Shown: positions 3,004 to 26,932 of the stretch, in pieces | Layout of the letters: the number at the start of each line of letters is the position of its first letter | Numbering within the stretch: the stretch's first letter is position 1 | Source: Eledone cirrhosa | Lineage: Eukaryota | DNA length: 64,000 nt | Direction: 5' to 3' | NCBI GenBank assembly: GCA_964016885.1 | Contig: OZ024751.1 | Location: 3,410,001 to 3,474,000, forward strand | Translations under genes and position numbers: made by a program | The notes under the pieces: generated by a model | The model's input: the letters and a program-made list of their open reading frames with translations, nothing else | What the model was told of the DNA's origin: nothing | The model's database searches: none

Positions 3004-3070
3004 TTTTATCTGATGAAAACACAAATATTATTGCATGATGATGTTTGTTTTTGAAATGCGCATAATAAAA
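3004..3070 (+). ncRNA. Minimal type I hammerhead ribozyme, canonical core
   Basis: TTTTAT-CTGATGA(3010-3016)-36-nt stem-loop II-GAAA(3053-3056)-TGCGCA palindrome-TA-ATAAAA. Stem I is TTTTAT/ATAAAA; cleavage triplet AUA. Confidence 0.85.
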
Positions 3071-3512
3071 TACATGGAACTCCTTTAACCATCTTTTGAT
3101 CTTATATATTTATATATATATATATATTTTTTTTTTCTTATTTTTATTTGCGTGTGCGAATATGTAGAGGAGTGCATTCATGTATGTGTATGTATGTACG
3201 TTTTCTATGTTTGTGTGAATGTATGTATGTGCGTATATATATGTGTGTGTATGGCTATGTTTGTGTATGTGTATGCTTGTACACACACATGCGTATGTGT
3301 GTGTATGTGTGTGTGTGTGTATATGTATATATATGTGTATATATATATATATATATATATATGTGTATATATATATATATATATATATATATATATATAT
3401 ATATATATATATATATATATATATATATATATATGTGTATATATATATATATATATATGTGTATATATATATATATATATATGTGTATATATATATATAT
3501 ATATATATATAT

Positions 3513-4336
3513 AGTTTAGGTATGATACATTTTATTACTAATTATATCTAAATGTTTCTTCTCTCTTCATAATGTATTTTTAACTCTGATACTGGTTCAG
3601 TCTGGTTCAAACTGAATTGGTCTGTCCCAGTCATTCATTGAGCAACATCGGTGAAGTTGGCACCCTTAACTCACAGTTGGGTGCGGATGCATTCATGTAT
3701 ATATGTGTGTGTCCGCATGTATCTGTGTGTTTTTAAATATATTAATAACTCCCTCTGGTCGAGCAATCTTTGAAGTGTGGGGACAACTAACTGGAAAGCT
3801 TCCATTACTCATACTTCTCGCCTTCTTCACTACCTCTTCTGCGGCCTCGATATGAATACCCCCTCCGCCTCCGTGGTATTTTCTTCGTGGTTATAAGAGG
3901 CTTAGCTCTGTTTCTCGACCGTTATATCGCGTGACTATCTCCCCCTCCGCCTTTTGGGATTCTTTCTCACGTCGTGTAGACGCGTTCTTGAGACTAGTAA
4001 AATGAGGTATCCTCTTGATAAGTCGGCAGACCTCGCAAGGACTCTATATCTTTGATATATTGTTTTTGTTTATGCCACGAAACTACGTAGTCGAGGAATT
4101 TAGGAACAGTTTAGGTATGATACATTTTATTACTAATTATATCTAAATGTTTCTTCTCTCTTCATAATGTATTTTTAACTCTGATACTGGTTCAGTCTGG
4201 TTCAAACTGAATTGGTCTGTCCCAGTCATTCATTGAGCAACATCGGTGAAGTTGGCACCCCTTAACTCACAGTTGGGTGCGGATGCATTCATGTATATAT
4301 GTGTGTGTCCGCATGTATCTGTGTGTTTTTAAATAT
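3513..4336 (+). mobile_element. Non-coding element with ~228-bp direct repeats (595-bp period) and a degenerate hammerhead
   Basis: 3513-3740 recurs essentially identically at 4108-4336. A hammerhead-like fold lies just before the second repeat. Microsatellites flank both ends. Confidence 0.7.
4010..4097 (+). ncRNA. Degenerate minimal hammerhead ribozyme
   Basis: TCCTC-TTGATAA (2 changes from CTGATGA)-GT(C)GGCA...TGCCAC-GAAA-CTACGTAG palindrome-TC-GAGGA. Confidence 0.65.
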
Positions 4337-4760
4337 ATATATAATATATATATATATATGTACACATATATATATATGTGTGTGGATATGTGCGTGTGTG
4401 TGTGTGTGCGTGTGCGTGTGCGTGTGTGTGTGTGTGTGCGTGTGTGCGTGTGTGTATATGTATTAATGTATGTATGTGTATATGTGTGTATATATGTGCT
4501 TGTGTAGGTAAGTGTACGTTTTTTATATATATGTGTGTATGTGTATGTGTGAATGCGTACACACACATATATATATATATATATATATATATATATATGT
4601 ATGTGTGTGTAAGTATGCTTTTGGTTTTTTTGTGTGTGTGTTTGCACGCGTCGTTTTATTTTATTTTATTTTTCCTTTCCTTCTCCCTTCTCCAGCCTCA
4701 CTTTCATATAGATTGTATTTTTTGGTTTGTAATCCAAATTCAATAAACAAACCAGCTTTT

Positions 4761-4819
4761 TTCCCGTTCTGAGGATTGAAAGCAAAACCTTTGCTTTAAG
4801 AAACCACTGGTAAATGGAA
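4761..4819 (+). ncRNA. Minimal type I hammerhead ribozyme, canonical core
   Basis: CCGTT-CTGAGGA(4769-4775)-stem II AAAGCAAA/TTTGCTTT-GAAA(4800-4803)-CCACTGG-TA-AATGG; cleavage triplet GUA. Confidence 0.8.
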
Positions 4820-22780: not shown

Positions 22781-23021
22781 CATACATATATAAATATACA
22801 TACATATATATATATACATATATATACATACATATATATATATACATACATATACATATATATATATACATACATATATATAGATACATATATATATATA
22901 CATACATATATATATATATACATACATATATATATATACATATATATATATACATACATATATATATATATACATACATATATATATATATACATATATA
23001 TATACATACATCAATATACAT

Positions 23022-25223
23022 ACATCAAAAAGTCCTGGCAGACATTTGTGGACACTGTTACAAACATATGTGCTAAACATACCCCATTAAGAACTATAAA
23101 CAAATCTAAGAGCAGAATCCCTAGAAATAGAAAAACGCTCATCAGAAAAATTAAGAGAACGAACAAAAAAATCAACAAGCTGAAATACTGTCAGCAGCAA
23201 CACATCAACTTGATTGCCATTTCATCACTAGAGATTAAAAAACATAACCTCCAAAACAACATAATGTCCCTCATCAACAATCAGAGAAGAGCTGAAGAGG
23301 CCTGGGCCATTGAGAAGATCAAACTCAATCCCAAAGTGTTCTTTTCATTTGCAAAAAAACACAAAATCACTGGCTCTACTGTTGGCCCTCTAATTGATGA
23401 AAATGGCACTCTTCAAGACAATGCTAAAACCATGGGTGAGATACTGCAGAAACAATACTGCTCTGTTTTCAGCAATCCTGATATGGCCGATCTGGGCTGT
23501 ATCGGCGATGTTACTCCCCATTACACCTTATCGGACATAACGTTTGGCGCCCCTGATGTCTTGGCGGCAATAAAGGAAATCAAGCATAATTCAGCAGTAG
23601 GTCCCGATAGGTTCCCTGCTTGTGTCTTGAAGGCGTGTCAACACCAACTTGCTTCTCCTCTTGCCAATCTGTGGCGGAACTCACTGGATGCTGGATATGT
23701 GCCAGAAAACCTTCTATCCCAGTCTGTTGTCCCAGTTTTCAAAAAGGGAAACAAATCCCTTGCCGTGAATTACCGTCCAATCTCACTCACCTCTCATATC
23801 ATTAAGGTATTTGAGCGAGTGGTGAGATCGCGAATGACCCACTTCCTTGAGAGTAACAATATGCTGAACTCCAACCAGCATGGATTCCGTAATGGAAGGG
23901 ATTGCCTGACGCAACTACTGCATCACTTTGATGACATTTTGAGAGCCTTGGGAGAGGGTTCCAACACTGATGTTATCTACCTTGATTTCAGCAAGGCCTT
24001 TGACAGGGTTGATCATAACATTCTACTGAGAAAGCTGTCCAATATTGGTGTCACTGGAAAGCTGCTGCAGTGGATCAAGAGCTTCCTGTCAAACAGAACC
24101 CAACATGTTGTAGTTGAGGGAGTCAAATCAAGCCCAGCCAAAGTCAGTAGTGGAGTCCCACAAGGCACTGTGTTGGGCCCACTTCTCTTCATCATCTATA
24201 TTAATGACATCACTGATATCATCAAACACAGCAACATTAAAATTTTCGCTGATGATTCCAAGCTCCAAAAGGTCATCAATGGCGTGGATGACCGGATAAG
24301 CCTTCAGTCAGACCTACTGGCTGTTACCCAATGGGCAGAAAAGAACAACATGTTACTGAACGAAGACACATTCGAACTGATCCACTTTGGAAAAGAGGAT
24401 GCTCTGAAACTCCCGTACTCCCTTCCCTCCGGGGAAACTCTCGTGGCATCTAACAACATCAGAGACTTGGGAGTAACCGTGGACAGCAACATAAGCTGGA
24501 CCACGCATATAAGCAGCAAAGTTGACATGGCCCGCAGAATGTGTTCCTGGATCCTCAGAACCTTCCAGTCGAGAGATTCCCGCACCATTATCCTTCTCTT
24601 CTCTACTTTCGCCCGACCACACCTTGAATACTGTTGTCCACTGTGGTCTCCCCACACGAAACAAAGTATCATGAAACTTGAAGCTCCTCAAAGGGCAATC
24701 ACGAAAAAGATAGATGGCATGTCAGACCTTGACTACTGGGGTCGATTGGAAAACCTGAAACTTTACTCACTCCAACGTCGCCGTGAGCGTTATATTATCT
24801 GCATGATGTAGAAAATGTTCCATCATCACTGCCCAAATGATGTTGGCATCGCCTTCAAGATACACCCAAGGCTTGGGCCCCGTGCTATCCGTCCCATTCA
24901 AAAATCTAAATCGCAACTCATAACAACAATACGGCACAATTATTTCACCTCAATCGGCCCTGCTCTCTTCAACATCACACCAGGACACGTCAAAACAGAA
25001 ACTGACCACACAAAATTCAAGAAGTATTTGGACAAATTCCTCCAAGTAATCCCGGACAAACCACCCACACCCGGATATGTCTCCGCAAACAGTAATTCTC
25101 TTCTCGAATGGGCCATGGTGCCCAAATCCTGAATTGAAAGACTTCGCCAGGTGGTGCTATTAAGTTAGACATGGCCTGGGCCAATACTGGCCAAAACATT
25201 TCAAAGTTATTCAAAGTTATTCA
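23022..25223 (+). mobile_element. CR1/L2-group LINE, 5'-truncated copy 2 (RT pseudogene, premature TAG at 24809-24811)
   Basis: Complete RT domain ([21 protein letters not shown]) without the endonuclease. Natural stop at 25132; tail ~2.4 copies of TTCAAAGTTA. Confidence 0.95.
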
Positions 25224-26277
25224 TACATATATATATATACATATATATATATATATATATATATATATATATATATATATATATATATATATATATACAT
25301 ATATACATATATATATATATATACATATATATATCAATATACATATATATATATATATACATATATATATATATATATATATATACATACATATATATAT
25401 ACATATATATATATATATACATACATACATATATATATATATATATATATATACATACATATATATATACATATATATATATATACATACATACATATAT
25501 ATATATATATATACATACATATATATATATATACATACATATATATATATATATACATACATATATATATATATATATATACATACATATATATATATAC
25601 ATACATATATATATATACATACATATATATATATATATATACATACATATACATATATATATATACATACATATATATATATATGTGTGTGTCTGTGTAT
25701 ATATATATATATGTATATATATGTATATACATACATATATATATATATATATATATATATTTGTGTGTGTGTGTGTATATATATATGTATATATATGTAT
25801 ATACATACATATATATATATATAAACATACATATATATATATATATATATATACATATATATATATATATATATATACATATATATATATATACATATAT
25901 ATATATATACATATATATATATACATATATATATATATATATATATATATACATATATATATATATATATATATATATATACATATATATATATATATAT
26001 ACATATATATATATATATATATATACATATATATACATATATACATATACATATATATATACATATATATACATACATATATATATATATATATACATAT
26101 ATATATACATATATATATATATATACATATATATATATACATATATACATACATATATATATATATATATACATATATATATATACATATATATATATAT
26201 ATATATATATATATATATATATATATATATATATATATATACATATATATATATATATATATATACATATATATATA
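25224..26277. repeat. (TA)n/(TACA)n microsatellite
   Basis: Direct reading of the sequence. Confidence 0.95.
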
Positions 26278-26932
26278 CCCTGACGGCGGAATGTTTCACT
26301 ATATCTTCTTCGGAAAATATATTTACTCCATTCCAGAAACTAATTAGTTGGAAGTGATAATTTAGTAAGTAAGTTTATTTTATAATTTTCTTATTTTACG
26401 TCTCTCATATTATTGTTCTGCAACCCCATGCATTGAACCACAATGTTACTAAGACAAAACCTATATATTTGCTAGCATTGATATGCATCTGTATGTATAT
26501 ATATGTTACTAGATATTAATTCTTTATAATTATCTCCAAATTATTTGTCGAGCAATATTGGCCATGACTGCTGCTATGGTAGTAGGCAGGCCGCTGTCTT
26601 ATTAGCAAACCACTTTCCACTGATTGACCTCGATGTCACGTGATTGATTCTTTTTGAAATCGCCACAGACGCAGAGCCAGTGATTTTCTCAATGGCTAGG
26701 AATTCAGTCCACGCTTTGCTATTTCCTATCCACTGAATTATTTTTTAATAAGTTTCCAGAGTCCTCGCTTTGCCTGGAAACTTAGCTGAGAATAGACTTC
26801 CCTGACGACGGAATGATTCCCAATATCTTCTTCGGAAAATATATTTACTCCATTCCAGAAACTAATTAGTTGGAAGTGATATTTTATAGTAAGTAAGTTA
26901 ATTTTATAAATTTCTTATTTTACGTCTCTCAT
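26278..26932 (+). mobile_element. Retrozyme-like element: ~132-bp hammerhead-containing direct repeats, 522-bp period
   Basis: 26278-26409 repeats at 26800-26932 around a non-coding interior, with (TA)n on both sides. Confidence 0.8.
26796..26877 (+). ncRNA. Minimal type I hammerhead ribozyme, canonical core (truncated and mutated sister at 26278-26355)
   Basis: ACTTCC-CTGACGA(26802-26808)-GGAATG...CATTCC-GAAA(26858-26861)-CTAATTAG palindrome-TT-GGAAGT; cleavage triplet GUU. Confidence 0.85.

Follow-up and report, generated by a model that had tools for sequence, protein, structure and literature searches.

Two described systems come closest to what is considered here. Penelope-like elements (PLEs) of the Hydra clade, as presented by Craig et al. 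(2021, PMC8557442), have a C-terminal GIY-YIG domain along with DKT, CxCX5C and CxxC plus CxH motifs, lack a CCHH motif, carry a hammerhead ribozyme within their terminal repeats, target (TA)n, and are found as partial tandems with inverted 5' copies and tails. Non-long-terminal-repeat (non-LTR) retrozymes (PMC7229834; preprint 10.64898/2026.07.22.740005) are non-coding monomers, low in guanine plus cytosine (GC), possessing one type I hammerhead per unit, occurring both in tandem and dispersed, predicted to form highly self-paired circles, and residing in genomes that contain PLEs as well. Analysed here is a 64,000-nucleotide (nt) stretch of Eledone cirrhosa DNA, i.e., positions 3,410,001 to 3,474,000 of contig OZ024751.1 in assembly GCA_964016885.1, which is referred to below as the window. 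Eight hammerhead motifs lie within it, lettered A to H by position, and the repeat families to which they belong bear the same letters. In the traits just listed, families A, C, E and G are like the Hydra-clade PLEs, and families B, D and H are like the non-LTR retrozymes.

The understanding favoured here is that the eight motifs are the 3' ends of insertions from eight multicopy families sitting in TA repeats, four of them truncated copies of coding Hydra-type elements and three of them retrozymes, with the retrozymes likely copied in trans by Hydra reverse transcriptase (RT) and endonuclease. Taken as a whole, this is given a probability of roughly 75%. Family membership, the coding status of seven of the families, tandem and inverted arrangement, ends in TA, and an intact 821-amino-acid partner family are directly in view. 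Dependence of retrozymes upon PLEs has previously been argued from co-occurrence and from shared terminal sequence. That the non-coding families carry their carrier's insertion signature (TA target, inverted 5' copy, short and long 3' end) without its sequence is a different line of evidence.

Eight hammerheads among TA tracts

The host genome is 3.0 Gb in size. Window positions 1 to 28,400 consist of TA-rich microsatellites interleaved with islands of other DNA, and within these an earlier examination of the letters alone, here the sequence-only reading, had placed eight minimal type I hammerheads. All eight folds are present at the positions it gave and with the stem III sequences it gave:

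3002..3072, plus strand: hammerhead A, core CUGAUGA, stem III UGCGCA, predicted cleavage after 3064
4010..4097, plus strand: hammerhead B, core UUGAUAA (U3-A8), stem III CUACGUAG, predicted cleavage after 4092
4764..4817, plus strand: hammerhead C, core CUGAGGA, stem III CCACUGG, predicted cleavage after 4812
5937..5979, plus strand: hammerhead D, core CUGACGA, stem III CUAG, predicted cleavage after 5973
11211..11257, minus strand: hammerhead E, core CCGAUGA, stem III CAAUUG, predicted cleavage after 11215
12995..13094, minus strand: hammerhead F, core CUGAGGA, stem III CAUAUG, UG replacing UH at the cleavage site
16019..16139, plus strand: hammerhead G, core CUGAAGA, 87-nt stem II, stem III CACUGUG, predicted cleavage after 16132
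26796..26877, plus strand: hammerhead H, core CUGACGA, stem III CUAAUUAG, predicted cleavage after 26871

The palindromic character claimed for stem III is seen throughout, that is, the helix III strand is self-complementary in all eight, with a central mismatch in two (self-duplex -4.8 to -12.9 kcal/mol). A strictly palindromic helix III is found as well in 57 of 76 hammerheads of a genome sample, which consists of sixty evenly spaced 10-kb stretches (600 kb). Proximity to TA, also claimed for six motifs, holds in that the cleavage site lies 31 to 68 nt from a TA-like tract in six, with hammerheads B and D farther away. The AATAAA that was said to be adjacent to three motifs does adjoin hammerheads A, E and F; in A, it spans the cleavage site. 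As a general polyadenylation signal AATAAA can be dismissed: of 79 sampled hammerheads just 13 have it downstream, the background being about 4% per 40 nt, and those element ends that were inspected continue into TA rather than poly(A).

A strict descriptor (CUGANGA core, stems I to III, GAAA, and UH) recovers four of the eight motifs (3002, 4764, 5931 and 26796) in the 16,262 non-microsatellite bases. Allowing one core mismatch over the same 16,262 bases adds a fifth, 11211 on the minus strand, while permitting no stem mismatches leaves only two of eight. With 150 dinucleotide shuffles, a control which the sequence-only reading had itself called for, the corresponding means are 0.00 (strict) and 0.02 (one mismatch), with a maximum of 1, versus the 4 and 5 observed. 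Motifs 4010, 12998 and 16019 are missed because of deviations which their families explain, namely a U3-A8 core, a lost cleavage-site base, and a long stem II. Core UUGAUAA of hammerhead B thus is a U3-A8 covariant of C3-G8 and is present in 61 of 61 family matches; hammerhead F has UG at its cleavage site in the window copy, with mostly UA among the relatives listed; and hammerhead G, with its short stem I and 87-nt stem II, passes relaxed thresholds and recurs in relatives. The CCGAUGA core of hammerhead E (U4C) is similarly fixed (13 of 13 matches). Core, GAAA, UH, three stems and an open stem I are found together in the window copies of A, B, C, D, G and H.

Short stems, along with the escape of three window motifs from the strict descriptor, might bring to mind chance folding in AT-rich sequence. 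That explanation is already refuted, its remaining probability being negligible. The genome sample holds 76 strict hammerheads, 73 of these in unmasked DNA, as compared with 0 to 1 in each of 10 shuffles, and one motif class numbers 80,590 in the whole genome versus 181 for a reversed control pattern.

Rfam contributes little in this regard: a scan of the window has no hammerhead among the 150 listed of 320 matches, with microsatellite-driven microRNA matches dominating, and RF00163 is found at 18 places elsewhere in the genome and at zero inside the window. Loci L021 to L038 represent a further abundant hammerhead family, the sole one detected by RF00163, which has two-end and inverted anatomy as well.

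Coding and non-coding families

Every motif belongs to a repeat family, i.e., the islands are multicopy rather than single-copy, as the sequence-only reading required. Its suggestion of many unrelated hammerhead families is borne out too, in the form of multicopy families with TA targeting and Penelope-type anatomy. Within the window these are as follows:

322..3101, plus strand: family A, 5'-truncated coding Hydra-type Penelope-like element, about 1 kb of 3' untranslated region (UTR), 3' end at a TA tract
3514..4332, plus strand: family B, non-coding monomer of 591 nt (595 nt in the window copy), 1.4 units of which lie between TA tracts
4333..4850, plus strand: family C, 3' end of a second coding Hydra-type family, with its TG/TA-rich stretch being its own 3' UTR
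5481..6240, plus strand: family D, non-coding monomer in partial tandem; a short 5' piece, at 5481-5520, is inverted
11170..11590, minus strand: family E, a third coding Hydra-type family, represented by its 3' end; part of the tail is inverted near 11514-11570
12950..13930, minus strand: family F, old (copies 76-89% identical), no shorter than 1 kb, its 5' part rich in TG
15672..16195, plus strand: family G, a fourth coding Hydra-type family, old, represented by the end of its 3' UTR
26279..26931, plus strand: family H, non-coding monomer of 523 nt, 1.25 units of which lie between TA tracts

A first-look genome search gives candidate copies numbering 380 (A), 1,100 (B), 506 (C), 1,819 (E), 2,907 (F), 311 (G) and 2,471 (H), with the best 40 candidates scored per family in these similarity searches. 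Counted exactly by pattern across the whole genome, B gives 4,324 matches and D (5937) gives 25,571, as compared with 0 for the reversed controls.

Family A supplies the best view of the coding elements. Its window copy retains an RT-linker-GIY-YIG remnant (322-2034) interrupted by one stop at 1621-1623, and all 117 of the 117 scored relatives of that copy's RT fragment are 97 to 100% identical to it, many within open frames of 821 amino acids. Loci L161 to L164 combine that intact open reading frame (ORF) with the 3' UTR, the hammerhead, partial tandems and inverted copies, all between TA tracts. An intact Penelope-like family, which had been supposed to exist as a mobilising partner, is thus present in the host genome. 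The 821-amino-acid protein possesses DKT, RWT (for RWK), a CxCX5C linker, no CCHH, and CxxC plus CxH around E and N. Its AlphaFold model has a mean predicted local distance difference test score of 81, with telomerase RTs as best structural matches, and its sole named homolog is from Argonauta hians (37% identity). As sequence searches of Pfam and the PDB gave no match to this protein, the GIY-YIG call for family A rests on sequence motifs. The family A unit, between cleavage sites, is 3,692 to 3,864 nt, exceeding what is typical of the Hydra clade (less than 3 kb, a descriptive trait).

Families C, E and G have upstream ORFs which by tblastn are 30 to 50% identical to the family A protein, are on the same strand, and are common to copies. 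For C, locus L168 has RT and GIY-YIG upstream of the hammerhead, and the C tail continues into a start codon (L168, L214). For E, the ORF end and UTR are common to L191, L189 and L193. For G, GIY-YIG is directly upstream in L200 and L207, and upstream DNA is common to L201, L203 and L204. Intact full ORFs of C, E or G are absent from the loci retrieved. The window copies of A, C, E and G are, as judged from their sequences, 5'-truncation products of coding Hydra-type PLEs.

Families B, D and H are another matter. Their longest ORFs starting with methionine are 45 amino acids (B), 83 (H) and 137 (D, running through D's microsatellite), and their GC contents are 35 to 42%. The D monomer has a period of about 428 nt in the window, 420 to 490 nt genome-wide, and 482 nt in locus L140. 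In the window, each of B, D and H has one intact motif, the first H motif at 26279 being 5'-clipped and mutated in its core; hammerheads in consecutive units are seen at the family level only, with arrays that hold 12 (B), 11 (H) and 8 (D, L140) cleavage sites. Folded as circles, the monomers are predicted to be 59 to 68% paired, with z scores against 30 shuffles of -7.4 (B), -4.8 (H) and -7.3 (D), the last of these inflated by D's internal microsatellite. At least three further monomer families, of 467 to 489 nt, are present in other loci. By their sequences, B, D and H match the genomic definition of non-LTR retrozymes (PMC7229834; preprint 10.64898/2026.07.22.740005).

Could all eight motifs nevertheless be truncation products or detached terminal repeats of coding PLEs, with the B, D and H arrays built through local DNA duplication in the manner of a satellite? 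A truncation origin does hold for four of the eight. Li et al. propose a terminal-repeat route, with 21 of 57 Xenopus families homologous to PLE termini (10.64898/2026.07.22.740005); a two-unit variant periodicity in some arrays suits DNA duplication; and a rare coding parent of B, D and H could be missed because only the best 40 candidates were scored. Among non-overlapping loci, however, 30 of 50 B, 12 of 17 D and 16 of 39 H copies (58 altogether) continue into their own monomer, with the remainder all stopping at TA. GIY-YIG is found upstream in 0 of 63 H, 0 of 22 D and 4 of 61 B matches, the B cases being about 2 kb off and at least partly an adjacent element A. Copies of B, D and H furthermore are dispersed in the thousands, are 97 to 99% identical, and have each their own flanks, inverted copy and tail. 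Common truncation therefore is very unlikely for the eight as a set. Put in terms of coding parents, A, C, E and G align to coding Penelope 3' ends, and no such alignment is seen for B, D and H among the candidates scored.

Family F fits neither the coding nor the non-coding class cleanly, as among the copies listed there is no tandem, no run-through and no linked ORF, and these copies are always truncated. A GIY-YIG fragment upstream of F copy L224 is a separate insertion behind a TA tract.

A population of mainly retrozymes, as the sequence-only reading had envisioned, is thus not supported: four of the eight are coding-element 3' ends, three are closed non-coding monomers, and F is not readily placed. 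Its companion claim, that much of the seemingly unique DNA comes from ribozyme-bearing elements, survives for hammerhead elements collectively and not for retrozymes. With element boundaries set by hand, hammerhead elements comprise 6,326 of the 16,262 non-microsatellite bases (39%), i.e., 3,880 coding-derived, 1,913 retrozyme (12%) and 533 from F. Some of what looks like microsatellite in fact lies inside elements C, D and F. The other island DNA includes a long interspersed nuclear element (LINE, 22%), which we take to be CR1/L2-like, and a transposase-like fragment (9%).

Several observations concern these monomers in particular. Family B is near-identical in sequencing runs X1, X2, X5 and X6, which are coded as three organisms; this could reflect ancestry shared until recently, transfer, or contamination. 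In X1 as in X6, one clean closed unit-length B contig is assembled at a depth of about 8, and these contigs are given no weight since low-coverage host DNA with tandem copies would look alike. In B and H arrays (L167, and L165 as well), variants alternate between successive units in blocks, that is, with two-unit periodicity. Dimer circles with one dead ribozyme are ruled out as the explanation, as cores are intact in the alternating units of both L167 and L165. A candidate 5' splice-site motif resembling GTAAGT/GTAGGT is present 10 to 25 nt past the cleavage site in B and H and in the sampled families F11, F18, F31 and F35, which are mostly short monomers. Penelope-like elements are known to carry introns. 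PLE introns are mentioned as well in PMC4209133.

Insertion anatomy and the proposed mode of copying

In nearly all of the families examined, copies tend to stop at either of two places past the cleavage site, some 40 or 125 nt beyond it in A, 75 or 240 nt in B, and 55 or 140-175 nt in H. In D, the 3' ends are spread over 110-165 nt. Where copies are present on both strands, one has a short and the other a long end, which is true of all eight such loci for H, both for B and all nine for A; two pairs of the A loci are duplicated insertions. (TA)6 is found within 300 nt of 68 of 79 sampled hammerheads versus 17% of control positions. The combination of two-end tails with inversion is a PLE signature, and it is present in the non-coding families too.

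With these ends in mind, the following can be proposed. Tandem copies would be transcribed through, and two hammerheads would then pair via their palindromic helix III, cutting the RNA to unit lengths which may circularise. The GIY-YIG domain would nick (TA)n, and reverse transcription would begin internally in the RNA, either about 40-75 or about 105-240 nt past the cleavage site, each family having its own two starting points within these ranges. By travelling round a circle or along an uncut multimer, RT could produce 5'-truncated, partial-tandem or tandem copies, and a second priming at the other point could give rise to the inverted 5' copy. Because insertions end past the cleavage site, the template presumably is a circle or uncut multimer rather than a linear unit stopping there. 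The Anolis PLE, in vitro, does initiate internally on AT-rich targets (PMC11167929). Cleavage, expression and the mobilising partner are what we infer here.

A template that reaches past the cleavage site is, from a different perspective, what would be expected were the motifs kept as protein-binding or priming structures, with spread occurring from uncut read-through transcripts. Uncut RNA indeed is the main substrate of Anolis PAc in vitro (PMC11167929), and the hammerhead-less family I, described below, shows like anatomy. A circular template would, however, also reach past that site. In addition, within the 600-kb sample the U3-A8 double change is seen 10 times and the corresponding single changes 0 times and once, and this excess of double over single changes, together with the conserved UH site, speaks for a catalytic core that is under selection. 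Among related families, exchanges in stem I compensate for one another as well. Retention for reasons other than cleavage is therefore considered unlikely.

Another alternative would retain B, D and H as retrozymes while assigning them a different carrier, that is, Naiad, Neptune, or a Hydra family not seen here. No sequence is common to the termini of B, D and H and those of A, C, E and G beyond simple repeats, and octopus Naiads also prefer (TA)n (PMC8557442 supplement). Cephalopod Naiads, on the other hand, are described as long-inactive remnants lacking canonical hammerheads (Craig et al., PMC8557442), whereas Hydra family A is young and abundant, with insertions of matching two-end anatomy. 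A carrier other than the Hydra type accordingly has a low probability.

Copying in trans by the Hydra-type machinery remains the favoured understanding, and certain points nonetheless weigh against it. Comparison with the four coding Hydra-type families detects no sequence that these share with B, D and H, and Naiad and other PLE clades prefer (TA)n as well. Insertion by the Anolis PLE in vitro did not need cleavage, and priming in that study was at an RNA site without homology to the target (PMC11167929), unlike several ends here, which by inspection abut TA-like letters. Minimal PLE hammerheads are weakly active in vitro (PMC4209133), and only one of nine Xenopus dimers was cleaved (bioRxiv 2026.07.22.740005). 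A lookup of sequencing runs, made for B alone, has no RNA run on record for that family. Lastly, the periodicity in L167 and L165 fits DNA-level duplication as well as it does a dimer template, the folding score of D is inflated as noted, and F remains poorly accommodated.

Scale, neighbours and comparison with known systems

The sampled hammerheads fall into about 31 sequence families. A bootstrap over stretches, with a slightly wider setting (79 matches), yields 280,000 to 520,000 hammerheads genome-wide, tandem and inverted copies each being counted separately. The class numbering 80,590 predicts 16 in the sample, and 16 were counted; three direct pattern counts total 110,485 motifs. B and D are over-represented in the sample (5 seen versus 0.9 expected, and 9 versus 5) because arrays clump, and the true genome total thus may be near the lower bound. 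Published counts are 126,247 for axolotl, more than 6,000 for coral, about 5,000 for mussel and about 9,000 for Xenopus, and the sampling-estimated motif count exceeds those compared, if the estimate holds. In the largest class, i.e., that of 80,590, helix III is TATATA or TATGTA, so that the ribozyme palindrome is itself a TA repeat.

A more sweeping proposal is that this is the largest and densest hammerhead population (about 1 per 8 kb, 3-5 x 10^5, dozens of families), one of circular-RNA parasites unrelated in sequence to their carrier and living on an active, TA-cutting Hydra element which would read structure rather than sequence and would also move a passenger whose ribozyme is replaced by a tRNA fold. 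This is tentative and, on balance, doubtful. If true, then insertions that time and again enter and split TA tracts would be one of the main forces shaping the microsatellite-rich landscape of the genome.

The candidate tRNA-bearing passenger is found in the window as well:

10504..11025, plus strand: family I, 271-nt tRNA-bearing monomer with tandem, inverted and TA-end anatomy

Family I has 1,487 candidates, including loci L228 to L238 and arrays of about 10 to 11 units at C4:61009637-61012411 and C4:264920695-264923803. Its 5' copies can be inverted, a distance of about 50 nt separates its two 3' ends, and its copies are bordered by TA. The tRNA fold scores 31 to 42 bits with Rfam, has anticodon GGA, and has an acceptor stem lengthened by flanking pairing. 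No hammerhead with two or fewer core mismatches was detected, and Rfam gave tRNA only (four loci). Possibly family I is a PLE passenger that is processed by tRNA enzymes or made by RNA polymerase III.

Other window contents can be described more briefly. Two 99.6% identical, 5'-truncated LINE copies (21384-22780 and 23026-25220, plus strand), presumably CR1/L2-like, have an RVT_1 domain and end in short TTCAAAGTTA repeats. Decayed transposase-like frames are seen at 14196-15671 (plus strand), with no Pfam match for the 140-amino-acid piece searched; these we assume to be hAT/ZBED-like. Positions 19494-20275, considered as a partial tandem, are instead a broken copy of a different, longer, young element of about 600 nt, one which is not PLE-like, is present in 8 of 60 random stretches at 95 to 99%, and usually is located beside (CATA)n. 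A very common repeat resembling short interspersed nuclear elements occupies 11602-11815 and 16233-16380, with matches in more than half of random stretches. An inverted pair of an 86-nt sequence (27653-27751 and 27943-28028) flanks a TA/TG tract, and 28409-64000 is a 37-bp satellite (about 962 copies, 92% matches) with strong strand skew.

Returning to the described systems, the Hydra-type unit found here is 3.7 to 3.9 kb, not less than 3 kb, owing to a 3' UTR of 1 to 1.5 kb; tails are 70 to 170 nt rather than 30 to 40; and the expansion is young and very large, with many intact ORFs (versus PMC8557442). Hydra-1_Obim, of Octopus bimaculoides, has a (TA)n target as well and is listed without a pseudo-LTR (PMC8557442 supplement).

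With regard to non-LTR retrozymes, the hammerheads of B, D and H differ in being minimal and PLE-type, and these families are known here from DNA alone. Their monomers are longer than the 150 to 450 nt of PMC7229834 and within the 51 to 972 nt of 10.64898/2026.07.22.740005. A keyword search of the available text of those two papers finds no strict TA targeting, PLE-style inverted copies or two-point tails such as B, D and H possess. Homology to coding termini, as seen in 21 of 57 Xenopus families (10.64898/2026.07.22.740005), was not seen for B, D and H.

The minimal PLE hammerheads of Cervera and de la Pena (2014, PMC4209133) are alike in palindromic helix III, long helix II, many divergent families, mostly single truncated copies, opposite-strand pairs, and the U3-A8 core. 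That core variant is described from Schistosoma Cercyon PLEs, whereas here it is fixed in a young, non-coding family, B, of more than 4,300 copies. PMC4209133 also counts 1,300 to 9,000 per genome versus the 110,485 found here by three patterns.

Literature searches, with subscription papers outside of their coverage, listed nothing that deals with hammerheads or retrozymes of cephalopods. An octopus repeat annotation from 2026 leaves ribozymes unmentioned in its main text, and the class therefore may hide among unclassified repeats in such genomes. As 97 to 99% identical passengers and an intact young carrier are together in one genome, trans-mobilisation, the role of cleavage, and rolling-circle copying are directly testable in E. 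cirrhosa. What is seen, that is, is a mixture of two known kinds, Hydra-type PLE ends and non-LTR retrozymes, on an exceptional scale. It is notable for how dense the motifs are, how many families they represent and how strictly TA is targeted, as well as for young passengers that share their genome with an intact and likewise young carrier.

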